64,000 bases of DNA from Blasia pusilla (taxonomy: Eukaryota): assembly GCA_050084515.1 (NCBI GenBank), contig CM114271.1:10912001-10976000 (forward strand), written 5' to 3'. Positions 16,090-58,649 of the stretch are shown in pieces. The translations under genes and the position numbers were made by a program. Position 1 is the stretch's first letter. Every line of letters starts with the position of its first letter. The notes under the pieces are model-generated. The model was given only the letters and a program-made list of their open reading frames with translations, was not told the origin of the DNA and did not search any database.

Positions 16090-16815
16090 CCTAATAGACG
16101 TGACATAGATCTTGATGACTCGGATGTGTGGGTGCAAGCATGTTCTTAGAGGGCGGAGATTTTTTGTAGAGTTATGCCCATGGCATTTGAGAGATTAGCT
16201 ATTGCTCAGCACAGGGATACATTGAGGTACACGACCATTGGTGGAGGAAGTATCGTTCAGGGATTATGAGGTTCCATCTTGGAGATTATGTATATTTTCA
16301 GCAAGCGCCACCCACGACGCTAGATGTCACTGCAGGACGCATAATCTTACGTGTGCGCGAGGTGTTACCGACCGGAGTCCTCATGTTTGAGGGACGTGAT
16401 GGTATGGTTTGGAAGGATCATGTGCGCAACTTTGCGCCATATCATCTTCCGAACGTGGATGGGAAAGTGGATCTGCGCTTGGCAGTGGTACCTACAAGCT
16501 TGAGGTGTATGTTGTGCGGACCTACGAGGGATGTAGCCACCATGTTGGTGTGTGATGGTTATTCTCGAGGGTGGCATATGTCATGTCTGACCCCCCTCTT
16601 GATGTAGTTCCCACGGGATGATGGATATGTCTGACATGTGTATAGGATGGTAGGTCATATTAGGGAGATGTGACATCTACTATATGGAGTTGGGAGGATC
16701 CAACTACCAATTGAGGGGGCGGTTGTCTGATTTCGATGTATATGCATGAGTTGATTTTTGTGTGGATCTACCTATGTGTTGGGGAAGATCAATGTTGTGT
16801 GGTGATGGTTGTTTG
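16090..16815 (+). mobile_element. Gypsy integrase C-terminus with PHD finger and 3' non-coding region (DNMT-carrying family)
   Basis: LAIAQHRDTLRY...GDYVY...CMLCG...MLVCDGYSRGWHMSCLTP is a PHD-like Cys/His pattern. 16680-16810 matches the reverse complement of 29030-29170. Confidence 0.8.
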
Positions 16816-25613: not shown

Positions 25614-28600
25614 TGTCACATTTGAGAAGCCGATAGGCCGAGATCTATCGTGGATAGGGCATAGGATCCAGCGGACTGTCTTGAGTGTAACTTTGTCCTG
25701 GAGTGTCGGATGAGGTTGAGGATAGGTCCGTTGTGTCAAGAATGTCGTTTTTGACAACTTTCTTGTAGAGGTCTTTCACAGCCGGATGACTTGTTGAGCA
25801 GGTCACCTGCCCTTGGTAACCTGTGCGTGCAGGTTGCTAGAAGGATAGTTATTTTTAGGGGAAGAGCCTTTTGGCTCTTCCCATCCCTATATAAGGGAGG
25901 AAGATGGCTTTCCCAAGCCACCTTTCTCATGTTGGGTCGTTGGAGTACCATTCTTGCTCGTGTGTGTGAGTTAGGATTAGGTGCTAGCGTATGGATTACT
26001 TGATAGCATATGGTGGACGAGGCTCGATATGCCGATGTAGATTGAGGAGTGGAGTTTTAGGCCGGGTGTGCCGTTTTTACTTCTCTTTACATGAGAAAGA
26101 TGTTAGGGGGCTGGTGGGAATTCGTTGTTTGCAGGTAGGCAAGCGAGTTGCCTTGGTGGGTAGCGCTAGAGACACTGGTTGGCATTTTGTTGTCGTTTTG
26201 TTGTTCGAAAGGCCATGCGCGGAAGCGCTGTCCATTTTTCTTTGATTTCTGTATTGTAAGTTGAGGGACAGTGGCTAGGCATAGCGTAGAGTGGGGCGGC
26301 AAGTGTATTGATGAGAGTAACTAGAGAAGGAGGAGAGAAGTGTGAAACATGACTTGCAGCCACCAGGGGGTTGTCAAGTAAAGGCGGCCAGGCTAGGACG
26401 TAGCCGCCTAGGGCTAGGTTAGGTCAAAGACGGAAGAAGGCAGGGCGCGGCACAGTATGTCGGGAGCCTAGGGTTGAGAGTCAGAGTCAGGCCCGAGAGC
26501 CTGGGAGGTAGCGAGGCCAAAGCATAGGGCGGCAAGCCGTGGGCCTTGGCCGAGCACCCCCCCCCCTCCTTTTCCGGACGTAGTCGGCGTCTTCCTCAGG
26601 ATGTAGTAGGCGCCCAATCTAGTCGGCATCTAGACGTGGTAAGGGCAGACATGGTAGGTCGGGCTGACATGGTAGGCAAGGTGGATGTGGTAGAGCGAGG
26701 GACTGAGATGTGGTTGAGGTGAGTTATGTAGTGGGAGAGCGTTGTTGAGACTTGGTGTTTCACGAGCATGGTGGGATTCGCGACGAGAGTTGGGCAGTTA
26801 TTACAAGTCGATTGGGGATCGACGCAGTAGTTCTTCATCGAGTATGGGTGCGAGGGTTGTGATAGAGACACACATACCGATGCTGATGGGAGGTTTAACG
26901 TGTTGGTCGAAGAGAGTGTCGTGTTGCGGAGGTTGCCGCACCATATGGAGGAGTGCGTGTTGACAGTGCCGTAGGTTGGAGGGCATGATCAAGTTACCCA
27001 TTCAAGTCCCTTTTCACTCACTTATCTTATGTGATTGAGAGTGCTGGGTATCGGGTAGTTGCTGGGCTAGATGGGTGTAGCAATGGTGTTGAGTGTAGTC
27101 TCCATGCATGTGTAGCATGTTTATGGATATACGACAGTTGCCGAGTAGGGATCACGTGTATGACCCGAGAGTGTCGGTAGTTTAAGTGAGTTAGTTGGGA
27201 GGCTCATGGTGAGCTTGAGTGTTGAATGTGCATGAGGCCCGGTGTGTTGTCACGAGATTACCATTAGCGTAGGTGAGCTAGTGAGGAATGTGGGAGACTC
27301 TTGGTGAGTCTGAGTGCTTGAGCGGGTAAGACAGGGTTGTTATCACGGTGTTCTTCGTGGGTTCGAAAGAACGGGGTAGCGCGAGCAGTAGTAGTGGTGT
27401 GACAGAGAGTGGAGTGAGATATCAAGGGGTTACGAGTGAGGAGCTACCTCGACTTCCATCCGTGGCTAGATTGTCATCATTGGACAGTGGGTATGGTGAC
27501 CAGATCTCAGACGAAGGCAGTGTCACTTGGCAAGAGATGGACAACATGGGCCATCGGGGCATGCGTCGTTTCTCGGGTGTAGTGGGCACCATCAACTTAG
27601 ATGACTTCATCTAGGAGTTCGTCACGTGGTGTGATTTCCAGGAGATACAGACCTCGACACGGTTCAACTCTTTCATGGCATGGAAGGGGTTGTTCCATCA
27701 CTTGGAGGGTCCTCCAATGGATGATTACATGGAGTTTTGATCGCTATATTCAATAGAGATTGATGCATGGAGGATGTATTGGGCTCTAAGATATGTGTGC
27801 ACTAGTGGTGGCGAGGTATATGATGGTATCGTGAGAGGAGAAAGACCCACACCATCAGCCCAGAGACTAAATGGAGAGGAGCGCAGTGAGACAGGCAATG
27901 TGGCAGAGACCTTTGGTGGTCGAGGCCCACCCAACTTCAGTTCCACAGTGGAGTTCTTCTGACAGTTAGGGAACATCCACCAAGGCGTACGCATCGACAA
28001 GCCGAGGAGTCTACATGATTTTCAGCGACGATTGGGTGAGAGTTTGAGAAAGGTATTCACGCGCATGGGGAGGCTGATCATTGCTACTTATGGAGTGACT
28101 GAGGCGTAGTCAATCCAGTATTGGTAGGGGGTTCTTGACTGAGAACTACATAGGAGAGTCTGAGATGTAGTGTTGATTCACACGGCGAAGCCCACATTGA
28201 AGGTGGTCTTCGAGTTATCTGAGCATATTGAGCTCAACATGATTGAAGATCAGGTAGTGACCATTGGATTTTCTTGAGAGTCGACGGGTCCATGCGCGAC
28301 GGTGATCCCACAGGTGCCACAGCGAGCACTAGTACCATGGGAGTGGGCCAGTGTGCCAAGAGAGCAGGGCGGGTACCGTGAGCCTATGAGGCAACGATCC
28401 ATGCCTACATATGTTGCCTAGCATGGACCGATGTTGTCTTGTTGGACGTGTGGAGGGGCCCATAGGTAGAGAGACTGCCCATAGCATGGGAGAGGACCAC
28501 GAGCGCCTCCGATTGTTCACGAGCCACAAGAGGATGGCCCCACCACAATATCACTGTGACTATTGCCACAGATATGATCACACTAGGGATAGATGTTTTG

Positions 28601-28983
28601 ACCTTCATCGAGAGGCACACCCAAAGGTAGGCTGAGGGACTAGGGGCAATTGTCGAGGAGGAGGTCAAGGAGTTCTTGCTAGACGTGGTGGTAGAGGACC
28701 ACCACTTGCCAAAGGAGATAGAGCAACGCTTCTCTCGGGCATCAATCAGTTGGAGCAGAGGATTGTTGTCATGATGATGATGCAGCTCAAGGAAGGCAGA
28801 GAGCCGAGAGTAGCTAGTGTGGTTCCAACTTCCACCTCTTACCATCACCCAAGTGAGGATCGTGCTAGTATGGGGTTTATGTGTAGTGCAGCTCCTATTG
28901 AGGCTACTGCGGTGGTGACTCGGGATGTTGCGAGAGGCACTGAGCTTTCGAGAGGTGAAGTTGAGATTGATCCACCGGAGGGG
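25614..28983 (+). mobile_element. DNMT-carrying gypsy element, 5' part: LTR/leader and decayed gag with zinc knuckle
   Basis: TGTCACA start. Leader similar to the reverse complement of 63200-64000 and 32000-32600. Gag motifs TESGVRY, FSGVVGTINLDDFI, CDYCHRYDHTRDRCFDLH. Confidence 0.8.
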
Positions 28984-31900
28984 TATGGTGTGCATACACA
29001 TTGCTATACAACCCACATCGCTGGTCACATCTACATACCACACAACACCAATCTTTCCGAACATACGGTAGATCCACACATAAATGAAACATACTCACGC
29101 ATATACAATGGGACCGCACAACCATCCCCTAGCTGGGAGTTGGATCCTAACTCCAAATAGCACTCACATATGTACTTGATAAGATCTCTTATCTATCCTA
29201 TACACATCTAGCACCATCGGTGTCGTCATCCCCGCAACACTCCCTTACTATAGCAACCCGCCGTGTTGATCCCTCCAAAGAGATCTGACACTCTCATACC
29301 CCGCTCCAACATAGGCACGGCTCTATGCGTGCCTCATGAGCTCATCTGCAGTCCACGCATCTCAACGCTTGTCTCCAACAACAATTAACCAACCCTGCAC
29401 CATGGGAAGAGACATCCATCCTGGCATGTCTCTCCGTGGGACTATCCGCTACGGAAATGTCCTCTGCATGTGTGCTCATGTTCCCAAACCCTCATGATCA
29501 GCTAACACCACCTATGAATATTGCCAACGTGGTCACCATATCCTCACGTGGTCGACCACCACTACTCCCTGCAAACAACATCGGTAGATGGCTCACCCAT
29601 CCATCACCTGATGGCTACCCTGGCCGATAAGAAATTGTCTCCTCCCAAAAATCCAGAATGAAACCTAGAGGATACAACATCGTATTCCCTACCAATACAT
29701 CATACAACTCTGCCGATGTTGTAATTTCCCGGGTGCGCACCACCGCACTTTCTCTCTCATGCTCTAGTTGGAGTCTAATCACTAACTCATGCCGGGTCAT
29801 GATCTGCGTGGATGATACGCCCCCAATAGAGGTCTGTATCTGAAAGGGGCAACGCTTGATGTTGCCTTTCCATAATCCCAACGCCAAACGCGCCGCCTTC
29901 CCTAATATCAAGGGCTGCGCTCCCAAATCAAGTAGGACGCGCTGCGGGTGGTACACCTATGGGACTAACCAAGCAAAACACTCTTGCTCGGTTATCCCAC
30001 AACACCACACCTTGTGTGATCATGGCTTGCTCAATGGCCGGTGAAGCTGGCATGTCTACCACCTTCGCCGCCACCGCATGCCATGACTTAGTGGGGGACG
30101 TCTCAAGCTCCTGCTCTAAGGGCAAGTCCACCACCTCCTCAACTATCTTTGAATGAGAGGCAATCACCTCTCCATGCTGACATAACGTGGCGGCCAGCCG
30201 GAACACCTCCGCTGGTCCAACTCTTAACGTCGCCAACTTCATGGCGGAAAACAACGGAGCGTGGGTTACCCTAGTGGCCACCTCCAACAACATGGTCGAC
30301 ACTGGGTCCTCCCCAACCGGCATAGGAGTCATCTCTCCAACTCCTTATGACACTGAAGCAAATGTCCCACCTGTGGGTACTACCGGTTGTCGAGGCACCA
30401 TCGACGGTGTATGTAGTGCCTTCGACAATGTGAACAACTAGGAAACCCTGGCTTACCGCTAATCAGTTCCCTCCTGTGGGTCAATCTCAACCCCACCTCT
30501 TGATGGCTCGGTTACTCTCGCAGCACCCCGAGTCACCACCGCAGCAGCCTCAACTTGAGCCGCACTACACATAAATCCCATCCCCGCAGAATCCTCACCA
30601 GCATCGTGGTACGATGTGGAGGCTGGCACCACACTAGCTACTCTTAACTCTGGGCCTGCCTATAGCTGTATCATCGTCATGGCAGCAATCCTTTGCTCCA
30701 ACAGATCAATGCGTGTAAGGAGCATTGCATTGGGTGCACGTCCTCCATCTCCTCTGACTGGTGATGGCATTCTTCCACCACGATCACCCACCACTCGATC
30801 TCCACCAACTCTCTCGCCCCCAAGTCCTCTACCTACCTCTGGACATACCTCATGGCAAAGATCGTAACACCTATCCCCAGTGTGACCATATTGGTGACAA
30901 TGATCACACTGCAACTGTGGTGGGGCCGTCCTCTATGCTCCTAAGCAATTAGAGGCATGAGTGGCCCTCTCCCATGCTGTGGGCAGTCCCTCTGCCCATG
31001 TGACCCACCACATGTCCAACAATCCAACCATGGTCCCTGTTGGGAAACATATGTCGGTACAGGCCGTTGCCTCGTCGGCTCACGATACTCAACCTGCTCT
31101 CTAGGCCCACCGGCCTGCTCCTGTGGTATTGGTGCATGCGGGGATACATGTGGGTCTACTCCTACTCGTCAACCCATCGAATCCCGTGAAAATCCCGTGG
31201 TCACCACATGCTCCTCACTCATGTTGAGCTCTACCCGCTCAGAAAACTTGAAGACCACCTTCAATGTGGGCTTCGCCATGTGAAGCAACATTGCATACCA
31301 AATTCTCCTTCGTAGCTCCTCATCCAGCACCCCGTACCAATACTGCACTAACTATGCCTCATTCATCCCATATGTGGCAATGATCAGTATTCGCATGTTC
31401 GTGAATGCCTCCCTCAGATTCTCACTCAATCTCCGCTGAAAATCCTGTAGACTCTTCAGCTTGTCGGTCCGCACACCTTGATACCTCCTCCCCAATTGTC
31501 AGAAGAACTCCACTGTAGGACTAAAACTCGGTGGTCCTCTACCATGAGAAGTCTTTGCCACCTCACCACTCTCACTGCCATCCTCTCCATCTAGTCCCCG
31601 GGCTGATGGTGAAGGTCTTTCCGCTCTCACTATCCCATCATACGCCTAGCGGCCACTAGTGGACACATACCCTGGATCCCAACACACCCTCCAGACATCG
31701 ATCTCTATAGAGTATAGAGATCAGAATTCCATGTAGTCATCCATCGGTGGACCCTCCAAGAGGTGGAACAACCCCTTCCATGCCATAAAAGGGTTGAACC
31801 GCGTAGGGGTCCGTTTCTCTTGGAAGTCGCACCATGTGTCGAACTCCTAGATGAAATTGTCAAGATCTATGATGCCTACCGCACCCGAGAAATGATGTAT

Positions 31901-33977
31901 GCCCTAATGGCCCATGTTGTCCATCTCTCCCCACGTGACACTGTCTCTGTTTGCGATCTCGTCACCAGACCCGTTGTCTAGTGATGAAGATCCAGCCACG
32001 GACGGGAGTCAGGGTGGTTCCTCACTAGAAACCCCTCGATACCTCACACCACTCCATATCACTCCACTACCACTACTCGTACTACCCCGTTCTTCCGAAC
32101 CCTGGAAGAACGCCGTGATGATAACCTTGTCTCACCTGCTCAAGCACTCAGACTCACCAAGAGTCTCCCACACTCCTCACTAGCTCACCTACGGTAATGG
32201 TAATTCCGTGACGACACACCCGGCCTCAGGCATACTCAACACTCAGACTCACCATGAGCCTTCCAACTAACTCACCTAAGCTACTAATACTCTTGGGTCA
32301 TACACGTGATCCTTACTCGGCAACCGCCATATATCCACCAACATGCTACACATGAAAGGAGTCTACACTTGCCACCATCACTACACCCATCTAACACCCA
32401 CCTAACACCAGCAACTACCCGATACCCACCACTCTCAATCACACAAGATAAGTGCAAGAAAAGGGACTCAAATGGGTAAAGTGAACACGCCCTCCAACCT
32501 ACTGCACCGTCAACACTCACTCCTCCATGTGGTACGGCAACCTCCGCAACACAACACTCTCCTCGACCAACACGTCGAACGTCCCATTAGCAGATGCGGA
32601 CTGCCCGTCGGCATTAGCACCAGTATCTCCACCACTAACACTCCAACCCAATTTTTGGTGTGGATCACTTGTCTCACCCCCAGTCAACAGCAAAAATTTC
32701 GTCGCCACCCCCAACTATAGTATCAACTCGTCGAACGGTGTAACCGCCTACCGCATCCGCCCAACCATGTAACCCTTGTCCAACCGTGCCCCCTACCTGG
32801 TATGCTCCAACCACATACCCAATTACTACGTTGTCCATCCTGCCATGGTTGTACCACGTCGCCCATCCTACCATGTTCAACTCCTACTCACCCGGTCCCA
32901 ATCATGTTCTGAACCTCTACTCTTCAAATAAATACTAGCCCCCACACGACGCTCTGCGTTCCTGCCACCTCCTTACTCACACCTTTGTTAATTCCTTCCG
33001 AGCCCAGGTGCGCTGCCCTATGGAGCCGCGCTCATCCCTTTCTCCTTTTGACCAACCCTAAATGTGGGTTTAAACCAACCCTAAACCGCACCTCTCCCAA
33101 CACCTCCCAATCCCTTACTTCTGTCCTCCAGCCCTATGTGGATGCCTTCCGCAGCTCCGCTCCCCAGCCTCCGTCCGACTCCTCTGCTTCCTTCCTCGGC
33201 CCCTACCTTAGAGCCTTAAATGCGGGGGAAGGGGGCATGGCCCGCGCCCCTATGCCTCTCCTCTAACCTTGGAGCCTTAATGGCTCTTGGCCCCTTGCCT
33301 AGCCGCGGCCCTAGCCCCCTCATGCAAACTTACCCTCCTCTCTACATCTAAGGGCACGTGGCCCTATCCGGGCTCCCCACAACCTCAAAGCTCCCTTGCC
33401 CCGACTTCATTACAGCCCGGCCCTTCCTTCCAATCGCGGCGCCACTAGCCCCTCAACCTCCCAACTTCATCGGACCTGCAGCGGCGCAGTCTCGACTATC
33501 CCTACATATTCTGGCATGTGTCCCTATGGATGCGGACCTCATCACGTGCCCTACGTAGCCGTATTTCTACGCCGGCGGTCGGATCTCACTGTACACGTAT
33601 ATCATACCCACGTGCACCCATGTACCAACTGTAAGTACCACGTATCTCCTACACAATCACACACGTCTATGCAAGAGAGGCGTTCCTAAGGCTCAACATG
33701 AGAAAGATGGCTTGAGAAAGCCATCTCTCTCACTCTTATACCCAAAAATAGCCTCCAAATGGTAACTTCCGTGCATAGGTTATTGGGTGACTGTTGACTC
33801 GGTCAACGGGTCACCTGATAGCCTAAAACCAAAATAGGGAAATCTCCATAAACAACGTTCCGGACACAATAGAACTGTTGCTAACCTCATCCGACATCCC
33901 GGGATGAAGTTACACCCGAATAGCCCGCTGACTCTCGACTGGATAGAACTCTACCTTTGTCAAAATAAGATATGACA
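28984..33977 (-). mobile_element. Nested, internally deleted copy of the DNMT-carrying gypsy family (LTR/leader, gag, protease, DNMT motif I, then 3' region)
   Basis: TGTCATA start at 33977. CDHCHQYGHTGDRC zinc knuckle, protease RVLLDLGAQPLILG, and SDLFGGI at about 29288-29268, then a jump to sequence matching 16630-16810. Confidence 0.8.
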
Positions 33978-36281
33978 GGGGATAGATGGGCGACAAGCTA
34001 GGGTTCCACAGTTGTTCACATTGTCAGAGGCACTACACACACCATCGATGGTGCCTACAAGTTAGGCAAGTGCGTCGACCTCACAAGGAGCTGGAGTGGC
34101 ATCTCCTATGGCTCGAGTGGAGTTAGTGTCAACCACAATATTGGAGGTGGCAACCAGGGTGAGCCAGGCTCCGTTATTTTCTGCCATAGAGTTGGCAAGG
34201 CTGGGAGTTGGACCAGCTGAGGTGTTTCGGTTGGTCGCCATGTTGTGTGAACGTGGAGAGATGACTGCCTCTTGTTCAGAGGTAGTTGAGGAGGTGGTGG
34301 ACTTGCCCTCAGAGCACGTGCCCGGGACGTCCACCATAGAGTCATAGCATGCGGCGGCGGCAAAGTTGGTAGATATGCCAACTCGACCGGCCATAGAGCG
34401 GGCCATGGTGACACCTGGCGTGGTGTTATTGGATGCTTTCTAATTTAATTTTACCCAATGCAGGTTAAACTCGAGACTCTGGTGGAGGCCTTTTTGTCAT
34501 TGTATGTAACCGAGGTGGAGTATTTGGCTTGGTTAGTCCGACACGGACAATGTATCACCCGCAGCATGTCCTACTTGATTCGGGAGCATAGCCCTTGATG
34601 TTAGGGAAGGCGGCGTGTTTAGCGTTGGGGTTCCGAAAGGCTGACATTGAACCTTGTCCCTTCTAGATACATACCTCAATTGGGGGTGTGTTAGCCGCAT
34701 AGTATATGACTCGACAAGAGATAGTTGTCAAAGTCCAGCCAGAGCATGCGATAGATAGTGCTATGGTGTGCACACGTGCGATTACGACACCAAATGAGTC
34801 CTACGATGTGTTGGTGGGGAGTACAGTGTTATATCCCCTAGGATTCATCCTTGACTTTTAGGAGGAGACATTGCTTATCGGCGAGAGTGGCGGTCAGGTG
34901 ACGGGCGGATGACTCAATTATGTGCAATTTAGGGGATGAGGGGGTTGACCACGAGACGAGTGTGTGACCATGTTGGAATCTTTCACAAGTAGTGTTAGCT
35001 GGCCGGGAGAGTTATCGGAGGGGAACACACATACGGAGGATGTCCCAGTGGCTAATATTCCCACACAAAGACATGCCATGGCGAGTGTCTCTTCCCATGT
35101 TGGTGAGACCTCTTCACCATTGTGGGGTACAACTCGAGAGCTATAGAGGAGTGCCAACGACCTCGTGAGGCAGGAGTGGAATCATGCCTTTATCCCGGAG
35201 CAACGAGAGTCAAGTGGCGATCAGACTCCTGGAGTGGAGACGTGACACCACTGGATACCACACCTATTGTGTGGGACTATCCAGAGGAGGGTGTTAGGAT
35301 GCTAGATGTCTTCCGAGGGATTAGCACCAGATTAGCTGCGATGTTGCAGGCGAGCATACGGGTGCATTAGTACCTTTACGTGGAGAGAGATGAGACCACG
35401 CGGCGAGTATCATCACGTTACTTGGAAAAATTGGTCGAGAGGTATCCTCAATTGTTGCTAGTATCTACAGTACGGGGGTATCATCATACACTACCCGCCG
35501 ACATCTCTTTGGTGGTGGTGGGGGGGGGCGGGGGCAAGATCTTGATAGAGTTGGCACCATTCATTTGGTGATTTTTGGATGGCCATAGTAGGATCATTCA
35601 TCACTTGGCCAAGGGTTTGGATTGCAAGATCCAAAGTCAGGGATGTTTTGGGAGATGCTACGAGTAGTGGGACACTTGTAGGAGAGTCAGACATGTTCTC
35701 CAACGTACATTTTGGAAAACGTGTCATTTTTTGGAGAGACTCGTGCACGTGTGATGACGAGTGTGCATCAAGTGAGGTCTTGGTTGGGACCTGCTATGTT
35801 GTTAGATGCAGCAAGTGTTGGATCACACGCCCACCGTCCACGACTATGGTACATGAACTTGATACCATCAGAGGTATTGAGTCGAGCACACGATGGAGTC
35901 TAGAGAGCACCACATCTCACAATGGATGTTATTCAGGTGGTGACGCGGGATGATAGATCACCGTTGGCGATAGCAATAGGGTGGGGGAGTTGAGGGGAGC
36001 CTTACCTACGTTGGTGAGCTTCCCAGCGTCCTATGCCTTTTGTTAGGGAGGGCCAGACATGATTTGGGATGAGATGACCTGAGTATTGGAGGAGCCTATG
36101 GCAGATGAGCGCGAGTGCGCCATGGGGTTCACTACCAGTACATCGACGGTGCCAAGTATGATTGGAGCATCACGAAGACAGGTGTTAACGTTGGGACAAG
36201 CGATGGACCTCAATTGTCTCACATGGATAGTCAACCTAGGTATGGCTGAGCAGAGATGGATGCGAGTGTCATCCATGCTGT
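33978..36281 (+). mobile_element. Continuation of the host DNMT-carrying gypsy element: gag end, protease, C5 DNA methyltransferase
   Basis: Resumes the sequence broken at 28983. Protease VLLDSGA*PLMLG at about 34568-34606. Confidence 0.85.
35280..36250 (+). pseudogene. C5-cytosine DNA methyltransferase domain (DNMT3-like) within the gypsy polyprotein
   Basis: Ordered motifs: I MLDVFRGIS, II YVERD, IV IFGWP** (35577-35591, Cys position lost), VI YILENV (35706-35723), VIII AHRPRLWYMNL, IX ERECAMGF, X RRQVLTLGQAMD. Stops and frameshifts present. Confidence 0.85.
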
Positions 36282-39200
36282 AGTGGAAAACTGCTAAAGA
36301 AGCATAACTGGTGGGAAACGACTCTCACACTCACACACCACCATGGAGAACAAAATTTGCAATGAGAGAATGAGTGGAGGCTGGTCCCCTTCTCAATTAT
36401 GTAGGGTATGTACAAGCAATCCTAACCCTAACCTTAACCATAGTCTCGAGTTAGACTAAGTGTGATTAACTAATCCTAGTTAAGATAATCGCGCTTAACT
36501 CACTAACCAAGATTAAGCTTCCCTACTTCGTGTGAGTACAAAATATAGCAGTTCAGGTGTCTCATGAGCTTGACTATAACTCAATCTTCAATACTCCCCC
36601 TCAAGCTCATATCAATATCTCTAACACCTAAATAATTTCTTAACATCTCAAACTTATCTCTAGACAATGCCTTTGTAAAGATGTCAACAATTTGCTGATC
36701 TATACCTATATACACAAGATCAATTTCTCCTGCAAGTACTTTCTCTCTCATAAAATGATAAGGTGAGGTTTTCAAGATGCTTGCATAAATTGGCTCACAA
36801 GGCCAACAACATAGCTCAAATCTAGTGTGGTTATAGTTAGATAGATTAAACTTCCAACCATATGTCTGTACATATTAGAATCTGCAAGCAGCTCTTCTTC
36901 ATCCACTCTTAGCTTGACATTGGTCCAACAGTGTAGAGATTGGCTTACAAGCGGTCATATCATATTTTGAAAGTATATGAAGAGCATATTATCGTTGTAG
37001 TAACCACATGCTCTCTCCAACCTTAATAAACTCAATATTAAGGAAGTACTTGAGTTCTCCCAAGTCCTTCATATCAAATTTTGCTTATAACTTAAGCTTA
37101 ACGTGTTGTACCATTTCTTCATTACTCCCAATAATCAGGAGATTGGCAACATACAACACAATGAGAACCGTATGATCTTGTCCTCTCAAGACATATAACG
37201 AGGAGATAGAATCACATATCCTAAAACCCAACTCTTGTATGACGTATATAATCTTGCCATACCAAGCTCTTGGAGCTTTTTGAGCCCGTATAGAGCTTTC
37301 TTCAACTTGCATACGCGAAATGGAAACTTGGGATGCTCGTATCAAAGTGGTTGAGTCATATATACCTCCTCGTATAGATATTCATTCAAGAAGGAATTCT
37401 TGATGTCCATGTGATATAATGTCCACTTCTTACTTATTGCAACTGCAACCAGTATTCTTGTAGTCACCATCTTTGCAACATGGCTAAATGTTCCTCATAA
37501 TCGATGCCATATTGTTGTGCATAGCTCTTAGCCACCAATCTTGCTTTGTATCTATTAATTGTACCTTCATGATTGCGCTTGATTTTGTAAAAATATTTGC
37601 AACCAATAGCTTCCTTACCTGAAGGTATATCAACCAGCTCCCATGTCTGTTGACGTCTTAATGCAGCAAGCTCTTCCTCCATAGCTTCAATCCATTCGAA
37701 TTTACTTGCAGCTTCTTCAAAATAACTGAGTTCCTGTTCTTAAAGGGTAGTAATCAAATATGCATGATGTATCGTAAGAAAACCTTCATTTATGAATCTA
37801 TGAAGTGGATGAGTAACTCTATTTGATCTACGAAGTTGTTGTTCAAAGGTAGATGCCTCTAACACTTGACTTGAGCCCTGACTAGTGTTAACAGATTGAA
37901 TACGTACTCTTCTCGTCCATGGACTCACAGATTTAACTGATGAATCTAAAACCTCTCCTAATCTTGCACTAGTACTTGGGGAAGTTGAAGACAATGTTTG
38001 TTGGTTTACAGTCATATTCTCCCCCTCAACAGACGAGTTTAGAGATGGAATAGGCTCAGATGGAGCATACCATGACTTTAGCTCATCAAAGACAACAATA
38101 CGACTAATAACAAACTGCCTAGAGGATGGAATGTAGCACTTATACCCCTTAGTTCCATCTGTATAGCCAATGAAGATACATCTTTTAGACTTGGGGTATA
38201 ATTTTTGACGTCTCTCAGAAGGAACATGAGCATAACAAATACAACCAAATACTTTCAAGAAGGAGAAATCAGGTTTATTTCCTATGAAGACTTCGAATGG
38301 GGTTTTATCATGAACTCCTCATGTTGGAGTTTGGTTGATTAAGAAGAGTGCACATGCTATAGCCTCTGCCCAATACACCTTAGGCATATTCTTCTCATTC
38401 AGCATAGCTCGTGCCGCTTCAGTAATATGTTGATTCTTCCTCTCACCCACTCCATTCTGTTGTGGAGTGTGACGACAAGTCACTTGACGTTGGATGCCAT
38501 TCTAACGTAAATAATTATCAAACTCTATTGAAGGATACTCTCCTCCTCCGTCACAACGCAATTTCATAATGTGTTCTCTAGTTTGCTTCTCTACACGAAC
38601 TCTGAATGTTTGGAACTCTGAGAATACCTCTAACTTGGCGTTCAGAAAGTATACCCATATATATCTAGAGAAATCATCAATAAATGAAACAAAGTATTGG
38701 CAACCACTAAGGCTATGTTGTGATGCTATCCACACATCACTATGGATCAACTCCAATATCGTGGATGCTCTTCTACCTTGCTTTGGAAAATGAAATCTAG
38801 CTTGTTTTCCAAATTGGCAAGCAGGACATAGCTCTAACGTAGCAAGACTCGCTAATTCATATGTCCAATTCTTTTATGCCACACATTTAGATTTGTGACT
38901 TGTTGGATGGTTTGACCATACATTGTTGTTTGAATCTCTGGCATAGAAACATCTAATTTGAACATTCTGCCAGATCTAGTTCCTTTGGCTATCGTAGTCT
39001 CGTCATCCATTGTTTCAATGAAACAACCATTTGCGTTAAATTTCACTTGATAACCCTGTTCTACTATCTGTCCTACACAGATCAGGTTTCTTGCAATGGT
39101 AGGAATATAGAAAATATTTCCAAGAGCATAAAGACCATCTAATGCTATTGGAACTTTACCGGTTGTGTGATATGATGTTGAGTGTCATCTCCTGTGAGCA

Positions 39201-40330
39201 CAATTGTAAGATCTTTCACCAGCTCCAAACTACTAAACCATTTAGCTTGTGAGGTCATGTGATTTGATGCACCAAAGTCAATGTACCAAATCTATTGTCG
39301 AATCTTTCTTGATGATTGCTCCCATATGATGAGTCATAACCAAGAGATGCTCCGTTTATGAATGTTGTTGTTCTTGGTACTACTCTTGGTGTTGCTGCTC
39401 CACATAGTTTTGTTGTTGTAAGGCTCATGTTCTCATATCTGCCTTCTTTTTGAAATAAAACTTTGCATAGTGACCCTTTATCCCACAGTAATTGCAAGAT
39501 CTAAGGACCTTTTGTTGTTGACCTCGACCCCAACGGTTTCCACCATCACCACCTTGTGATTGTGTCTAGTACTGATTCGTAGTTGATTGAGTGACGTTAT
39601 ATTGAGTGCCTCTTCCTCCATATGCTTGATATCCACCACGAACATGGAAGCTTCTGCCACGATCCTTACCTCGACCCCTGCCTCTGTTTGATCCATAATC
39701 TGCAAATAGCGCACTCTCTTGTAGGTATGACAAGCTGCCGCTGCCTACTAGGCACGTCTCTTCACTGATTAACAGTGGAACTAACTCTTGAAAGGTTGGA
39801 TACTTCTCTCTCATGAAGATAGAGGTCTCAAAGGACTTATAATCCTTGGGAAGGCCTTGAAGAGTGAAAAAAATTAGATCATCATCTTCTACTATCACTC
39901 CAATGCTATTCAACTGATCAACAATATGTCTGATACTCAAAATATAATCATTGATGCTCTACGATCCTTTCCTCACTTCATTCAATTTCCGTTTCAATTG
40001 AAGCTTTCTGGCCTTTGTAGATATCTAGAATAGCTTTTCCAATGCATCCTAGGTCTCCTTCGGAACATCAACATCTTGAATGTGACCTATCATTGGCGAA
40101 TTGATTGTTATTGAAATGTAGTGGATTACTTGCCTTGTGCGTTTGTTCCAGACGCGAACATTCAAGTCTATTGAGTCACCTTCTCGCTTGGCCTCATCAC
40201 CTGTGACAAGCTCCCAAAGTTCTTGATCAATCAGAAATTGTTTCATGTAAAACTTCCAGACATTGTAATTCTGCTTCTCTAGCTTCGTGCCTATGATTGC
40301 TGTTGAGGAATATTCCATGACGAACAATTT
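36282..40330 (-). mobile_element. Decayed Ty1/copia retrotransposon: gag, GAG-pre-integrase, integrase, RT, RNase H; PPT 36594-36605 and 3' LTR 36282-36593; 5' LTR missing
   Basis: KLEKQNYNVWKFYM, WHKRIGHMN, LIHSDVW...FIDDFSRY, VFGCICY, YKARLVAK, VDIFTKAL. Domain order INT before RT. The purine tract GAGGGGGAG abuts the LTR. Confidence 0.93.
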
Positions 40331-40377: not shown

Positions 40378-43300
40378 AACGTATGTGCTTCGCTTGTGTT
40401 CGCTTGAAGTCACACAACAACTCTTGCGCGTGTTCCAAATCCGCCTCCGCAATCCAAGTCGCCTCCTTCACATGGTAGCCCTTCCATTTTACCAAGTATT
40501 CATACTTGTTGGCCCGACACCTCGAACGTAAGATGGTCTCCACCTCGAACTCCGGCTCCTCATTTACGATGACCGGATGCGGTCTCACCACCTGTCTCCG
40601 CTCGAAACGTCCATTATCTTGAAGGTATTTCTTCAATAATGACACATGAAAGGTCGGGTGAATCTTGAACTCGTCCGGCAGTCTCAACGTATACACATCC
40701 TCAAACGGGTTTGCCACAATCACATACGGTCCAGCATACTTGGCAGACAGCTTTGTGGACAACTCTTTCGGAAGAGTGAGATTCTTCACACTCAACCACA
40801 CTTGTTCTCCGACTTGGAATCGTACTTGGCGCCGACTCTTGTTAGCATGCTTCACGTACCTCATTTGAGCCTTTGCAAGACTTCGCCTCGCGCTCACTTC
40901 TCGTTCTCGCATCTCTACCAACAAACTTTCTACCGTCGCTTGTCGTGTTCGTGCCAATGTAGTACCCTTCGAAAGGGCTAGATCAAGAGGCCCTTCTAGC
41001 TCTCGTCCATTTGCCAGGAGAAACGGAGATTCTCTGTTGCGAGCACGCTTGGTCGAGTTGTAGCGAAGATTCCGCCATGCTCACCACTTGACCCAATCGC
41101 GTTGATCAAAGACGACATAATTCCTCAAGTCTTGATTCACGATAGAGTTTACCTTTTTCACCGGTCTGTCCATCCGTCGTGGGTGGAAAGCCGTCATGAA
41201 ACTCAGCTTGGTCTTAAACCTTCTGAACAAGTGCTTCCAGAAAGCACTGGTAAACTTTGGATCCCGATCTGAAACAATGCTCCTCGGCAAACCATGAGCA
41301 CGCCACCAGCTATCGAGGAATAGTTGCGTTGTCGTATACGCCGTTGCGGAATCCACCGTCGGCACGAATCTCGCCAACTTGCTAAACCGATCAACAATCA
41401 CAAGTATAGCGTTGTATCCCCAGATTCGGAAGACTCGTGATAAAATCCATACTCACACTTTGCAAGGGTCCTTCGGGATCGGCAAGGGATGCAAAGACAA
41501 GCCCTGTTTCTTATCATAAGAGACTCTATTCGCTGGCGTGTCACATGGTCTTCACATATTGAGCAACATCCTCCTTCATGTTGGGCCAAAAGAACCGCTT
41601 GGACAGAACAACTAGCGTAGATTTCTCTCCTTTATGTCCTGCCAAGGGCCCGTCGTGACATTCCGCTAACACCTTGGTTCGCATTCCCGCCTTGCCCTAC
41701 ATAGATCCTACTGTTTGAACCTTAGTAAACCGTGCACCTCAAACTTATGTTGGCCACCTTCTCACCCCGCTTCAACTTCCTCAAGTATTCCCCGCTTGAG
41801 CATCCTTCATATATCCTTCACTTAATCCTTCTCTCCAGATCTGTTTCCTTAGGGAACATTGCTCTCAAAACTGTGTGTCGTCGATGGCATGTGTTCCTCC
41901 TTGCGACTTAACGATCCGGGAATCACATTATCTTTACCTGGCTTGTGGATCAACTCTACATCCATCAGCGCCAAGGTATCATGCCACCGTAGTTGTTTCG
42001 GTGTCACTCGATCCTGGGTCTCAAAATACTTGAGTGATATATTATCGGTGAATACTCGAGTCCTGTGGAGCCCTAGATAATGCCGCCACTTCCTCAAGCA
42101 ATGTACCACCGCGAACAACTCTTTCTCGTGAGTAGGCCATCTCCTTTCAGTATCGCTAAGCTTCTTGCTCTCATATGCCACCGGTCTCCCTTCTTGCACC
42201 AACATTCCTGCAACCGCGAAATCACTAGCATCGGTATGCACTTCGAACGGTTTGTCAAACTCCGGCAGCTTTAACACTGGTTCCTGCGATAGAATCTGCT
42301 TCACTCGGTTGAATGCCTCATTAACTTCCTGGGTCCAAGTTGTGTTGGCAAACTTTGCCGTCCAATCCGTGAGAGGTCTCACAATTCCCGAAAAGTTTTT
42401 TACATAAGTACGGTAAAATTGCACCGCACCTATGAACCTCCTCATCCCCTTTACAGTGGATGGGGGTTCCCACTCGGAAATCACTTTTACCTTTTCCATG
42501 TCTGGACTGACGCCATCTGCACTGACCACGTGACCCAAGAATTTGATCTTACTCAAACCAAATTCGCTCTTCTCTACATTCGCATACAGCTGATTTGCCC
42601 TTAGCTTAGACAAGACCGCTCTCACATGTCGAACGTGCTCCTCTAGTGACTTCGAATAGATAAGTATATCATCGATATAGATGATAACATACTCATCCAT
42701 TTCCTTGTGAAAAATGGAGTTCATCAATGTGGTGAACGTCGGAGGCGCGTTACATAGACCGGAAGGCATCACTACAAACTCAAAGGAACCGTATCTCGTC
42801 CTGCACGCAGTCTTCTCCACATCTGCCTCGGCAATCCGAATCTGGTAATATCCTCGACTTCAAGTCAATCCTACTGAAATATCTCGCTTTGCCGCCTATC
42901 AAAGAGATCATCTATCCTTGAAGAGGATAATTGTTCGAACCGTCACTTTGTTCAAAGGCACGGTAATCAACACACACCTCATCTTTCCATCCTTCTTCTT
43001 TACAAAGAGAACAGGTGCTCCATAAGGTGACTTGCTAGTCCTAATGTAACCCTTTTCCAAGAGCTCACTTAACTGCTTTTTCAACTCAAGAAGTTCCTCC
43101 TGATTCAACCTATATGGTGCTTTTGAAGGCGGTTGGGAACCGGGTATGATCTCTATCTTATGATCTACGGCTCTATGCGGCGGAAATTCAGTCGGAAGCT
43201 CATTTGTCAAGACATCCTCAAACTCCTTGACCACTTCCTGGAGTGGTTCTGGGATTCCCCTTGAAGCAGCGTCCTGATCTCTGCGTATACTGCTTGTAGC

Positions 43301-46053
43301 CTCCTCCACTTGTCTCATCAAGCAGAGAAATCCATCCTCCAACTCGGTTATGCTCCTCCTTGTGATCGAGTTCACCAACTCCATCTTTGCTAGAACCTCA
43401 CGGACCAACCGCACCTGTAACCGTTTGCCTTTTAGCAAGACGCTCAACCTCAATGGTCGGCGTCTTAACTCCACCTCATACGCATCTAGGAATGTATTCC
43501 CCAAAACTTCGTCAATGCCGTCCATTTCGCATACAGTGAAATTCTCCTTCAACTCGAATACCCCGCATCCTACTGTCAAACCCAAGACCAAATCAGAAGT
43601 CCGATGAGACTTGCCTCCTGCAAATCCCACTCGAATGGGCTCGTCCGCCTTAGAGGTAGACAGCCCCAGTTCCTTCACGATTCTCGGGCTTAGGAAGGAG
43701 TGTGAAGCACCTGTATCCACGAGCAACAACACATCGCGATCAGCAATCTTGGATCTTAGGTACACCAAATTGTGCGTCCTCTTGGTGACTTGAAGGGACG
43801 TCTCCATATCGCCCGCCAACAGATGCTTAGCAGCAAACGCAATCATACTCCCATTACTAACCTTCGGTTTCGAACACCCTTTCGACAGGTGACCCGGTTC
43901 GCCACAGTTGTAGCATACGACCTTGCCGTTCCCTGTCTTTGAGTGTTGTCCTCCTTTCGGCTTCGCATGAAGTTCCACTCGCTTTTTCTTTGCCGGCGAC
44001 GACTCTCTTGGTTCGTGTTGGCCCCCACTCCAGCCTCTTTTGAACGCCTCCTTATTTTTCGACTTCTTCGAAAAAACTTTTGACTCGAAGGGTTTCTGGG
44101 TTTGGACCTCATCGTCCCCAATCCGCTCCGCTAGCTTCAGAAGGTCCGCGCAGGTCTCTGGCAACGTCGGCATTCGGTAAAGGGCCTTCTCAGCGCTCGG
44201 CTTGAGTCCACTAATGAAGATAGCCTTCTTCGCGTGCTCATCCATCTTCGGACTAGAAGTCAGTTTCGCACTAAACTCCCTCACATACGCGCTTAAGGAA
44301 CCACTTTGCCGCATCCGCACGCATTCCACTGTGTCACGCAACCCTTGGTACTCCGGAGTGAACCGATCCCCAATCAACTCCTTGAACTCCTTCCAACTCA
44401 GAGGTGACTCACCGCCCAGATATTCCTCTCGTTGAGCGGTCCACCATTGCAGAGCATGATCCTTAAGGAAAGTAACGGCTACCGTCACCTTGTCCCGCTT
44501 CAGCGACCTTCGCGCCTCAATACTGATTCGATTCGTAAGGAAATCCTTCACTTTCATGAGCGCCCCACTCCAATAAATGGCGTGGCAGGTTCGTCTTGCA
44601 GAGCTTTTTCCCCTTTTCGGGTTTCGAGTGGCCTCTAACTCCGCAATCCGCTTGCTTTGCTGGGACATCTGCTCCACCAACACCTTCAACAAGTCCAACG
44701 TCTGGCTCGACTCTGTCCTTTCCCCTGAGTTTGGGCCCACTGGCCCCGCGGAAGGAGTCGCCACTGGGACGTCCTCACGACTGGCGTTCAGCTCTTTGGG
44801 AGTCTCTGACTCCTCTATAGCTTCACGGTCCGGCATTGGTTCCTCTCTCGGTTCACGTTGCTTGATTCAGCGCTTCTTGGGTTGTTCTCCCTCGATCGCC
44901 ATTTCCAAGCCAACTCACTCAGATCTCCTCCTCGTTTCTTGCGTCCCTCCTCCAGCGTCCGAGTCTAGCCGCTACCTTGAAATTTCCCAAGCGTCCGGCT
45001 GATCCCACGACCCCAAGTTCTCGCTCACCAAGGATAAGCTCTGATACCACTTGTCGCGCCCCTACTCTCCTTGAACGTCAATCTTTAGTGTTGCGGAAGC
45101 GTGCGTTCAGTAGGTCACGAACTCATCGCCGATCTGCACCCAAACACGCACTCTCGTTAGTCGGGTTTGGCCAACTGGCGTTCCAACCCACCAAGTCCTC
45201 AACTCCGCGTCTCATCAAGCTCAACCTTCCTTAATTCCTAGCTCCCAACACATGGCAAGTCCTTCAAGACTTGGAACAGACTTCCTGGTTAGTCCAGGGA
45301 TCTGAAACGGCACTTACACGCCTAGCGATCCCAACTGTTCAACGGTCCTCGTGTGAGTTCCGAACCGAGACCCAAGTAATTGAGTCGCGGCGTGAAATCC
45401 AAGAGGGATGTCTAAAATCGCCTCAATGGACTTGGTGTAGGTTTTCCAACCCAACGCCCAAACTCGCGTTCCGTTCCATGCCCTTGAGCCGCCCCGCGGC
45501 GCCCAAAGTGGGGTTTGGGTTCCAAGCACTCTCGGAGACCTTCCCCCTTACTAGTACTTCTGGAGTTCTCCAATAACCCCTCCCCTTTGGGAAAAGAGGT
45601 TCGGGCCCTTCATTGTGGCCCTCAACCCGACTCCACTTACAGTCATTTTCGGGTTGTATCTCGGCCGCTGCTTATGCGTTTGCAGCGATCTTTGATGCGT
45701 TTGAACCGGCTCTCTATAAGCTTTCCAATGCACTCTTATTTTCTCCAAACGCATCTTGGCGCTAAAAGTTATGGCCATAAATACAGTCGGAAACTCTCAA
45801 ACGCAAGTGGCGTTCCAAGTCCGGATCTTTCCTTTGGCAACCCACTTCGTAGACTCGACTTCTTTCAAGTCTCATTCCGCGTTTGGTCCAGGTTTCCGAG
45901 TCGCGACCATCATATCTGAAACGCGGCTTCTCGCTCGCGTCTCATCTCTTGTCTCCTCTTTGAGACAACTCCAACGCGCAAACCATCTTAGCGTGAGCCC
46001 GCTAATGTTCCGATGTTCCGCTTGGCACTTGTTTGGTCATGAGGGTCGCGACA
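40378..46053 (-). mobile_element. Ty3/gypsy chromovirus: 5' LTR 46053-45052, PBS 45049-45038, gag-ZnK-PR-RT-RH-INT-chromodomain; 3' LTR missing
   Basis: TGTCGCG...CGCGACA LTR termini and TGGTATCAGAGC PBS. Motifs CYNCGEPGHLSKGC, LLVDTGAS, YIDDIL, HTDASDF, VDRFSK, YAGPY, EVETIL...YLVKWKGY. Several frameshifts. Confidence 0.95.
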
Positions 46054-49000: not shown

Positions 49001-49285
49001 CCACTCCACGATGGGAGAATCCAGGTCAAAGCTTGCGGGAACCACCATAGCCGAGAACTCTACTCACTACCAAGGCTAACTCCCAACGCAACAGGCTCAA
49101 CTCAAAGAACTAACTGTTCTTTGAGTGCACTCCACACTATATCCTCCAACCTAAGAGCGGGCCCTATTGGAAAAGTCACCCTCAACGGAGTAACCCCCAA
49201 CCCTATGTATGAAACCGCATCTCTACCTAGACACTACGGCCCTACATAAGGTATGGCCTCTACTAGCACACTATACTCTATGACA
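46054..49285 (-). mobile_element. Gypsy 5' half related to the DNMT-carrying family (LTR/leader and gag), cut by the chromovirus LTR
   Basis: TGTCATA start at 49285. ORF 47406-46363 has TRSGLRY and YSGVVGTIELEDFMQEFDTWCD. Zinc knuckle CHHCGRPGHPRERCFDLH. Confidence 0.8.
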
Positions 49286-49304
49286 TAATCCGTATGGTCA
49301 TGAC

Positions 49305-49449
49305 AGAGCAGAAAAGTGCAAAAAATTTCACACAAAAAGTTTCCTCTCTTCAACCCAACGGAAACTCTCTTAAAAAAAAAGTATCTCTTTTGGTTGAAGG
49401 TAGTTTCCTCTCTCCTCTCTCCTCTCTTCCTCTCCTCTTACCGCACCTC
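49305..49449 (+). mobile_element. Orphan terminal fragment of the MULE (transposase-side end)
   Basis: Near-identical to about 62930-63077, with the same CTTACCGCACCTC end. Confidence 0.85.
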
Positions 49450-50220
49450 GATGTCGAGGTAGCTCCTCACTGGTAACCCCTCGATACCTCACTCTACTCC
49501 ATGTCACACCACTACTACCGCTTGCACTACCCCGTTCTTCCAAACCGTGGAAGAGCGCCGTGATGACAACCCTGTCTCACCCGCTCAAGCACTCAGACTC
49601 ACCGAGAGTCTCCCACACTCCTCACTAGCTCACCTATGCTAACATCAATCCCGTGATGACATACCTTGCCTCACGCACACTCAATACTCGAGCTCACCAT
49701 GAGCCTCCCAATTGACTCACCTAACCTAGCAACACTCATGCATACATGCGACCCCTACGCAGCAACCGCCGTATATCCACCAACATGCTACACATGAAAA
49801 GAATCTACACTCGTCACCATCATTGGACCCATCTAGCACCAGCTACTACCCAATACCCATCACTCTCAATCACACACACACACGACAAGTGCGGGAAAAA
49901 GGACTCGAATGGATAACCTGATCACGCCCTCCAACCTAGGGCACCGTCAACACGCACTCCTCCATGTGACACGACAACGTTCGCAACACAACACTCTCCT
50001 CGACCAACACGTCAATCCTCCCGCCAACAGATGCGGACAACCCATTGGCATCATGCACACTAACTCTCCGTTGTCAACTCATCGGTGTAGAGGGTCCATC
50101 TTGACCCTAACCATGTAACTCTCCTAACTACGTAAGCAGCTCTAACCTGGTAACTTGGTCACCACATCCTGAACCCTACCACGTTGCCATCCAACCACGT
50201 TCACAAAAAAGGTAGTACAT
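49450..50220 (-). mobile_element. Leader and gag start of a DNMT-family gypsy copy; it continues at 63087
   Basis: Similar to 32010-32600 and to the reverse complement of 26880-27450. Confidence 0.75.
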
Positions 50221-58430: not shown

Positions 58431-58649
58431 TGATGCGCAACCCTCTGCTTCCCAAATCCGGTAACATATTGCAACACAATTGAATGTGTTACAGAATTGG
58501 ATCCATTGTGTCAGAAAATTTCCCCACCGAATTCATCTTGTCAGTAAAAATCTGTCAGGAGTATCTGTTTCCTATTCACTATAAATTAAATATTCTCATT
58601 CTCATTCTCATTCTCATTCTCAGTCTCCTCCCGTAGGAATCTTCTTGGA

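Follow-up and report, generated by a model that had tools for sequence, protein, structure and literature searches.

A DNMT3-like cytosine methyltransferase as a probable module of a Ty3/Gypsy retrotransposon family, seen in a dead copy from Blasia pusilla

Introduction

Does a retrotransposon in a land-plant genome encode its own cytosine methyltransferase? The question is raised by a 64,000-nucleotide stretch of Blasia pusilla DNA (GenBank assembly GCA_050084515.1, contig CM114271.1, positions 10,912,001–10,976,000 of the forward strand), which is hereafter called the window and in which the motifs of a C5 cytosine methyltransferase lie downstream of an aspartic protease. An earlier note on this DNA had read the arrangement as a Gypsy retrotransposon encoding a DNMT3-like enzyme. 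Our analysis indicates that window positions 35227–36282 very probably hold the methyltransferase module of one member, here called copy P, of a Ty3/Gypsy long terminal repeat (LTR) family, and that this copy is truncated and dead. Judged from its sequences, the family polyprotein has the order gag (with a CCHC knuckle), protease (PR), DNMT, reverse transcriptase (RT), RNase H, and integrase (INT), and a PHD finger probably follows the integrase. Retrotransposons bearing their own cytosine methyltransferase reverse the usual picture in which the host silences the transposon. They have so far been documented in dinoflagellates and one charophyte alga, and are now found in bryophyte genomes too.

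Results

Structure of copy P and its methyltransferase stretch

On the + strand, a C5 cytosine-methyltransferase motif set occurred in canonical order at 35227–36289, spread over three successive reading frames. The earlier note had placed motifs I, II, IV, VI, VIII, IX, and X in this order directly after the aspartic protease, and both the translation and the protease homology bore this out. Copy P consists of the following parts, in which residue numbers refer to relatives of the family (loci L, proteins P) and ORF denotes an open reading frame.

27336–28989, + strand: gag part 1 of copy P (tblastn to L002 ORF1 residues 38–542, 27–37% identity, E 9e-68)
28983–33976, − strand: 4,994-bp insertion splitting copy P (junction alignments; AGGG on both sides)
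33976–35197, + strand: gag part 2 and aspartic protease of copy P (L002 ORF1 residues 539–714 and 711–949)
about 34499–35197, + strand: aspartic protease of copy P (34499–35149 against P0022 residues 1001–1222, E 3e-22)
35227–36282, + strand: DNMT3-like C5 methyltransferase pseudogene of copy P (translation, homology, and motif order)
35227–35520, + strand: frame 0 of the methyltransferase, motifs I and II (translation)
35302–35325, + strand: motif I, LDVFRGIS (frame 0, translation)
35377–35391, + strand: motif II, YVERD (frame 0, translation)
35541–35972, + strand: frame 2 of the methyltransferase, motifs IV, VI, and VIII (translation)
35574–35600, + strand: motif IV, FGWP, two stops (35586–35591), then DHS (frame 2)
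35709–35723, + strand: motif VI, ILENV (frame 2)
35832–35849, + strand: motif VIII, HRPRLW (frame 2)
35975–36282, + strand: frame 1 of the methyltransferase, motifs IX and X (translation)
36113–36130, + strand: motif IX, ECAMGF (frame 1)
36191–36208, + strand: motif X, LGQAMD (frame 1)
36283–36593, − strand: Copia 3′ LTR cutting off copy P (92% to the reverse complement of 4723–5033)

Copy P thus occupies 27336–28989 and 33976–36282 on the + strand and ends at the Copia LTR after motif X. Its gag and protease were colinear with residues 38–949 of the gag-PR ORF of L002 across the insertion. Within them, 27564–27786 matched the gag of L006 and L022 by blastn, and 34496–35197 matched L002 ORF1 residues 711–949 by tblastn, with LLDSGA visible in the frame-1 translation. 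Reads from other copies were informative at both junctions: 32 DNA reads joined 28978 to 33977 and came from copies without the insertion, and 597 DNA reads extended beyond 36278 with one agreed continuation. The interval 36283–36593 had been tried as the continuation of copy P itself and was dropped, being a Copia LTR. No LTR of copy P was found in the window. Copy P was shown to have been split by a 5-kb insertion carrying a partial copy of the family (M1), to be cut off by the Copia LTR, and to have decayed.

The methyltransferase region of copy P contained eight stop codons (seven TAG and one TGA) and two frame changes, and two TAG codons (35586–35591) occupied the place of the catalytic Pro-Cys of motif IV found in relatives. 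Copy P is a pseudogene, dead and truncated, whose catalytic Pro-Cys is not intact, just as the earlier note had said of the stops at this position.

A phmmer search with the 197-aa middle piece, in which stops were given as X, against 1.84 billion proteins yielded 367 matches at E ≤ 1e-3, of which 76 reached E ≤ 1e-10; the top match had an E-value of 1.7e-43 with 58% identity. The uninterrupted methyltransferase ORF of L002 matched 35245–36280 of the window by tblastn (E down to 7e-71), and motifs I, II, IV, VI, VIII, IX, and X all lined up in a MAFFT alignment with relatives. By these comparisons, the motif series in the window is real and far beyond chance.

The domain is nearest to DNMT3

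The sequences of all PDB chains were searched with a profile built from 22 domains of the family. The top matches were DNMT3A, DNMT3C, and DNMT3B, with E-values of 4.1e-23, 2.7e-21, and 3.5e-20, respectively. Tobacco DRM, M.HhaI, Arabidopsis DRM2, and DNMT2 followed at 3.7e-12, 7e-9, 4e-8, and 0.02, respectively, and DNMT1 was absent from the matches at E ≤ 1. An AlphaFold2 model was made from an uninterrupted relative (L002 3195–4508), with a mean predicted local distance difference test score (pLDDT) of 82 and a predicted template modelling score (pTM) of 0.79. When this model was searched with Foldseek, all of the matches listed (at ranks up to 49 of at least 500) were DNMT3A, 3B, or 3C chains, with a best E-value of 4.4e-20. 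The target-normalised TM scores were 0.78–0.84 for catalytic-domain chains and 0.42–0.56 for longer chains.

The motif order I-II-IV-VI-VIII-IX-X along the + strand was not circularly permuted, unlike that of DRM. In the 22-row alignment, Cys-Gln of motif IV, Glu-Asn of motif VI, and Arg-x-Arg of motif VIII were invariant or nearly so. Taken together, the profile search and the predicted model support a non-permuted C5 methyltransferase with DNMT3 as its nearest relative in sequence and predicted fold, and the DNMT3-like assignment made in the earlier note was upheld.

Linkage of the methyltransferase to Pol in relatives

Domain orders were classed for the best 150 of the 367 phmmer matches. 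Fourteen of them had gag or PR upstream, or RT downstream, of the methyltransferase (type A), and 32 had RT or RNase H upstream of it (type B). Among the remaining matches, INT lay directly downstream in 12, the methyltransferase stood alone in 90, and two gave no match. In P0027, the Pfam order was CCHC, protease, DNA_methylase, RVT_1, RNase H, and integrase, and the Marchantia gene model P0318 carried the methyltransferase followed by RVT_1 and RNase H.

A scan of metagenome loci with a 4-row alignment returned 67 loci, three of which were type B with RT upstream. Among the 64 others, RT followed the methyltransferase in 35 (32 of the 38 with room for it), and PR preceded it in 40 (35 of the 43 long enough to show it). 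Both were present in 27, and RT together with INT in 22. The spacing was constant across loci, with median gaps of 313 nt between PR and DNMT and 544 nt between DNMT and RT. The near-intact locus L002 carried CCHC, DNA_methylase (49 bits), RVT_1, RNase H, and integrase by Pfam in a single frame with just two stops. The in-frame stops flanking the methyltransferase ORFs of L001, L002, and L006 lay at differing offsets from the methyltransferase match, which lends no encouragement to the idea of a conserved read-through signal.

Direct LTR pairs were found at L006 (5901–6207 versus 14648–14954, 94%) and L022 (1768–2074 versus 10499–10837, 86%), with repeats of about 330 bp and a spacing of 8.73–8.75 kb in both; the 3′ repeat of L006 ends at the contig end, so further repeats are possible there. 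In P0065, a PHD finger followed the integrase with 22.4 bits, just below the Pfam threshold (24).

Across many copies, these sequence comparisons show the methyltransferase as an integral, colinear part of the Pol region. The link between DNMT and RT was demonstrated in relatives and not in the window, because copy P is truncated before RT. Accordingly, the Gypsy-order polyprotein proposed in the earlier note is represented in the window by gag-PR-DNMT only and is completed in relatives colinear with PR and RT-RNase H-INT; a domain unlinked to gag-PR-RT in other copies, for which that note had allowed, was not what we found.

The type B order RT-RNase H-DNMT-integrase-PHD was common and apparently undescribed, and it included long uninterrupted ORFs. 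Examples are P0017, P0055, P0058, P0059, and the loci L061, L062, and L064, and one named case is Scenedesmus 'pol'.

Evolutionary constraint on the methyltransferase

The ratio of nonsynonymous to synonymous substitution rates (dN/dS) was estimated pairwise for 32 of 61 eligible loci and was 0.58, 0.63, 0.57, 0.48, and 0.31 for DNMT, PR, INT, RT, and RNase H, respectively. Stop density was 1.24 per 100 aa in DNMT and 0.81–1.57 in the other domains. Constraint on the methyltransferase was thus comparable to that on the other Pol domains during the active phase of the family, and it has decayed along with them since then.

Copy number, transcription, and decay in B. pusilla

Reads of this species from one whole-genome DNA run and three RNA runs were counted from 80% likeness. 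The DNA depth over the methyltransferase bins was 750–980, that of reads at least 99% alike was about 1.1x (72 reads over 9.9 kb), and that of a low-copy bin was 1.5x. This read depth suggests several hundred copy-equivalents of the family in the species.

The three RNA runs gave 506, 494, and 538 reads, mostly less than 90% alike, which therefore derive from other copies. The strand bias of the RNA reads flipped with the orientation of P and M1, showing that family members are transcribed at a low level and strand-specifically. Under the usual stranded-library convention, the transcripts are sense.

Between copy P and other copies, A>G and T>C differences numbered 305 and 301, respectively, against 150 C>T and 126 G>A. 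Where copy P differs from other copies, it mostly has A/T at positions where the others carry G/C. Such a bias is consistent with decay through transitions, the kind of change to which methylated DNA is prone.

In L002 (321–6809), the least-decayed relative, the observed/expected ratio of CpG was 0.28, and it was 0.51–0.67 in the decayed window copies and L006. The low value of L002 recalls the CG depletion reported for the DNMT-bearing long interspersed nuclear elements (LINEs) of Symbiodinium. In addition, a 33-nt stretch at 29269–29301, comprising the motif I codons of M1, was covered in all three RNA runs by reads whose flanks on either side were of unrelated sequence, and at 29287 all 37 reads of RNA run X14 differed from the window. 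Only that stretch is shared with an abundant transcript from elsewhere.

Distribution and phylogeny of the relatives

Among the matches listed, the named bryophyte relatives were Calypogeia fissa, Marchantia polymorpha, Riccia sorocarpa, Sphagnum troendelagicum, S. tenellum, and S. fallax, and the named algal relatives were Closterium spp. (type A) and Scenedesmus sp. PABB004 'pol' (type B). M. polymorpha had at least 16 gene models of the family, annotated 'hypothetical protein', including one of 1,278 aa with CCHC and DNMT. No vascular plant was among the named matches listed in these word-limited searches.

A quick maximum-likelihood tree, unrooted, was built from 56 transposon-borne domains only. 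The window piece fell into a 20-row clade that held all liverwort and Sphagnum rows, with a Shimodaira–Hasegawa-like approximate likelihood-ratio (SH-aLRT) support of 100, and the land-plant host assumed in the earlier note is in line with this placement. Its nearest row was a Calypogeia protein with 66% identity over 140 columns. Closterium rows formed another type-A clade, and 11 of the 12 type-B rows lay outside the starred type-A clade, the exception being the long-branched P0358. A Cymbomonas match, for which the precomputed Pfam domains comprised integrase only, grouped with the type-B rows. Within the bryophyte sequences, the Marchantia copies formed their own clade, Calypogeia sequences stood in two places, and one Sphagnum sequence stood among liverwort ones.

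Two of the related proteins deserve separate mention. P0310 (Mp_7g09570, 612 aa, M. polymorpha) combines a part resembling the N-terminus of the family methyltransferase with a strongly matching PHD finger (36.7 bits); it represents either an element copy that has lost sequence or a host gene derived from a transposon. P0216, filed as a cytosine methyltransferase of a 'Candidatus Obscuribacterales' genome bin, lay inside the eukaryotic type-A clade and is probably from a mis-binned eukaryotic contig. A search of the ESM Atlas returned generic 'DNA methylase' clusters only.

Other copies of the family and neighbouring elements in the window

The insertion that splits copy P, the Copia element that truncates it, and the other pieces of the family in the window are as follows.

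31903–29955, − strand: gag of copy M1, inside the insertion (L002 ORF1 homology)
29953–29516, − strand: protease of copy M1, inside the insertion (L002 ORF1 homology)
29285–29268, − strand: motif I of copy M1, DLFGGI, in the N-terminal part of the methyltransferase (M1 ends inside the DNMT region)
32758–33419: low-copy DNA in the insertion (depth 1.5–11 versus several hundred around it)
36594 to about 40300, − strand: Copia body (Pfam Retrotran_gag_2, rve, SH3_retrovirus, RVT_2)
46153–47358, − strand: gag fragment of copy M2 (L002 ORF1 residues 49–441, 41% identity, E 1e-87)
48926–49142, − strand: LTR-like family piece upstream of M2 (blastn to both LTRs of L006 and L022, 75–77%)
4100–4488, − strand: isolated N-terminal fragment of the family RT (L002 ORF3 residues 26–137, 60.5%; blastn to L006 11261–11648)
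16111–16631, + strand: isolated post-integrase fragment (blastn to L006 13828–14344 and L022 9671–10193)

By tblastn, M1 was colinear with L002 ORF1 residues 109–873 on the − strand, and the DLFGGI that the earlier note had reported for a nested copy was exactly where it had been placed, after the M1 protease. The description as a nested copy held in substance; the inserted 4,994-bp piece proved to be composite and to end inside the DNMT region. No internal direct repeat of at least 30 nt and no LTR pair were found at 28983–33976, and the lack of an LTR pair inside leaves the simple entry of an entire element by way of its integrase unsupported. The insertion resembles a captured composite fragment more than a normal element insertion. 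The interval 30469–32592 had been considered as an LTR of a + strand copy and was dropped, as the − strand shows gag homology.

The gag fragment of M2 had 72–78% nucleotide identity to the gag of more than 20 loci. The post-integrase fragment contained a decayed PHD-finger-like motif, CMLCGP, at 16506–16523 (Pfam PHD 16.8 bits versus a cut-off of 24) and matched the PHD regions of P0017 and P0055 by tblastn. The earlier note had counted at least four gag-bearing or leader segments of a multi-copy family. The multi-copy nature was confirmed by read depth, and three gag-bearing segments were; the further debris of the family in the window comprises the LTR-like piece, the RT fragment, and the C-terminal fragment.

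The Copia element at 36283–40300 (− strand) had no detectable 5′ LTR and abutted the chromodomain of a chromovirus. A second Copia LTR copy, 92% identical, was located at 4723–5033 and was followed by TGGTATCA, which resembles a primer-binding site (region 4723–5045). The chromovirus-type Gypsy element at 40400–45300 (− strand) carries no methyltransferase and is well preserved, with ORFs of 652, 336, and 343 aa containing Retrotrans_gag, CCHC, protease, RVT_1, RNase H, integrase, SH3_Tf2-1, and chromodomain. Its observed/expected CpG ratio of 0.95 was much above that of its neighbours. An unidentified repeat was present as two inverted copies of about 7 kb (5102–12133 and 53294–59903, 75–86% identical), and tandem 67-bp units at 7190–7658 recurred inverted at 57627–58163. 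Pfam matches were absent for the ORFs of this repeat and for a 458-aa ORF at 59827–61200, and Pfam gave no match on ten other large ORFs of the window.

Discussion

Possible function of the methyltransferase

As read from the sequences, active copies of the family would make the methyltransferase as part of Gag-Pol. The enzyme could then deposit 5-methylcytosine on the new cDNA of the element or at its integration site, and new insertions would arrive already methylated, or marked so as to favour persistence of the element. By analogy with the chromodomains of chromoviruses, the PHD finger at the integrase end may read histone tails and steer integration. De Mendoza et al. (2018; PMC5890265) proposed the same methylation of cDNA or insertion sites for Pol-embedded Dnmt3. 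We regard the predicted methylation of cDNA or insertion-site DNA as possible, at somewhat less than an even chance.

The methyltransferase might instead act on RNA, or be non-catalytic and serve in nucleic-acid binding or, with the PHD finger, in chromatin tethering, or act mainly on host DNA in trans. Of these readings, a function on RNA or a non-catalytic one competes most strongly with self-methylation. A tested SymbioLINE-Dnmt is reported to have given no de novo DNA methylation in yeast, and the authors bring up methylation of RNA as a possibility (PMC5890265); the constraint on the present domain is just moderate. However, the catalytic Cys-Gln, Glu-Asn, and Arg-x-Arg are invariant or nearly so in the 22 family domains, the nearest solved relatives are de novo DNA methyltransferases, and SymbioDIRS-Dnmt3 can methylate CG de novo (PMC5890265). 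On this evidence, the alternative as a whole appears somewhat unlikely.

Age and origin of the family

A wider reading, which we put forward tentatively and consider rather doubtful as a whole, is that DNMT3-carrying Gypsy elements are no peculiarity of Klebsormidium but an old lineage that has persisted in streptophytes as far apart as Closterium-type algae, liverworts, and Sphagnum, equipped with a chromatin kit of two parts, a DNMT3-like enzyme in Pol and a PHD finger on the integrase. Bryophytes would harbour hundreds of copies, still transcribed and possibly active, with an enzyme that pre-methylates their own cDNA or insertion sites and contributes measurably to the host methylome. If true, this would be directly testable in M. 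polymorpha because of the many gene models of the family there.

Alternatively, bryophytes may have acquired the family from algae through horizontal transfer, as opposed to its having been passed on vertically in streptophytes over a long time. The named distribution is indeed patchy, comprising liverworts, Sphagnum, and Closterium and no vascular plant among the matches listed, and the two tree positions of Calypogeia and the Sphagnum sequence among liverwort ones could be taken in the same sense. On the other hand, the bryophyte sequences form one clade (SH-aLRT 100) in the unrooted tree, with the Marchantia copies in a clade of their own, and the absence of vascular plants is weak evidence, as it rests on the matches listed in word-limited searches. 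Transfer from algae therefore seems improbable to us.

Membership of copy P in the family

Several observations weigh against reading the stretch as part of such an element, or against parts of the picture drawn above. In the window, no RT, RNase H, or integrase lies in cis with the methyltransferase of copy P on the + strand. The polyprotein is interrupted in every one of the 64 type-A-like loci, least of all in L002 with its two in-frame stops, and neither a primer-binding site nor a polypurine tract was recognised by eye beside the LTRs of L006 and L022. Of the family gag, Pfam detects the CCHC knuckle only, and 31600–34601 and 45300–51799 on the + strand were without Pfam matches. In the Pfam check suggested in the earlier note, the middle piece of the window methyltransferase stretch reached 17.4 bits for DNA_methylase (PF00145) against a cut-off of 22 (E 0.0031), and the other five translated pieces gave no relevant match; the close uninterrupted relatives L002 (DNMT ORF, 49 bits), P0312 (35.6), and P0196 (35.2) passed. 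The dN/dS of 0.58 reflects moderate constraint only, mixed with neutral decay, and stops are no rarer in the methyltransferase than in the other domains. The depth-based copy estimate includes 30,589 of 49,171 reads that aligned to the stretch just partly, the sense orientation of the transcripts assumes the library convention, and the tree came from a quick search.

One could also take the methyltransferase stretch for a remnant of a host DNMT3 gene, either a fragment or a pseudogene, that happens to lie beside retrotransposon debris, as the lack of RT or integrase downstream in the window and the dense nest of unrelated elements in the region might suggest. This is hardly credible, given that dozens of loci repeat the order PR-DNMT-RT with the same spacing (median gaps of 313 nt and 544 nt), that gag, PR, and DNMT of the window are colinear with the single-frame L002 polyprotein, that the DNA depth is as high over DNMT as over gag and PR, and that motif I of the second copy, M1, stands at the corresponding place behind its protease.

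Implications

Counts of 'DNMT genes' in bryophytes are inflated by DNMT-bearing elements. Marchantia offers genetics, published methylomes, and few host DNMTs, and is a tractable system for the function of a transposon-borne DNMT3.

Comparison with known systems

Host DNMT3A, 3B, and 3C catalytic domains are the best profile and fold matches to the element domain and are alike in motif order, but identity to them is merely about 20%, and the element domain is without PWWP or ADD and sits inside a retrotransposon polyprotein.

Among retrotransposons, type B algal Gypsy elements such as Scenedesmus sp. PABB004 'pol' carry a related methyltransferase with 32–40% identity to the window piece, and a PHD finger likewise follows the integrase. 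In type B, however, the methyltransferase lies between RNase H and integrase, whereas it lies between protease and RT in the window family. No printed description of type B was found in the literature searched.

SymbioDIRS-Dnmt3 and SymbioLINE-Dnmt of Symbiodinium are likewise retrotransposon-borne cytosine methyltransferases, those of DIRS being Dnmt3-type and located in Pol. They differ from the present family in that the former are DIRS elements with a tyrosine recombinase, the latter are LINEs with a bacterial-type DNMT, and the hosts belong to another kingdom (PMC5890265). The EpiLTRs of Cymbomonas and Euglena are also LTR elements with a DNMT and a reader domain, but they combine an adenine methyltransferase with a DNMT4-related DNMT and a chromodomain. 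According to the preprint, they are distinct from streptophyte Gypsy-DNMT3 (bioRxiv 10.64898/2026.05.21.726589).

The closest known system is KnitGypsy-Dnmt3 of Klebsormidium nitens, which likewise has a non-rearranged Dnmt3-type domain in the Pol of a streptophyte Gypsy-type element, with conserved catalytic residues and signs of constraint as in the present family (PMC5890265). It is described as having few copies and DIRS-like terminal repeats (PMC5890265), in contrast to the hundreds of copies in the bryophyte-like host studied here and the one simple direct LTR pair in each of L006 and L022. The present family probably also has a PHD finger after the integrase; this comparison was made by description, and no K. 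nitens protein was named among the matches listed. In PMC5890265, the acquisition is read as specific to the K. nitens lineage, and later papers, bioRxiv 10.64898/2026.05.21.726589 among them, cite the Klebsormidium elements as 'streptophytes (Gypsy-DNMT3)'. The relatives in Closterium speak against the view that the methyltransferase was acquired just once and within the Klebsormidium lineage only.

In the literature searched, which included some papers in part, Gypsy-DNMT3 was reported only from the charophyte Klebsormidium and not from land plants; the supplements of PMC12344493 and PMC5890265, which lay outside the search, could hold bryophyte entries. As far as this literature shows, the occurrence in land plants, including the model liverwort, the high copy number, the ordinary LTRs, the PHD finger, and the Closterium link are new. 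The kind of element is already known from KnitGypsy-Dnmt3, and the present family extends it to land plants.

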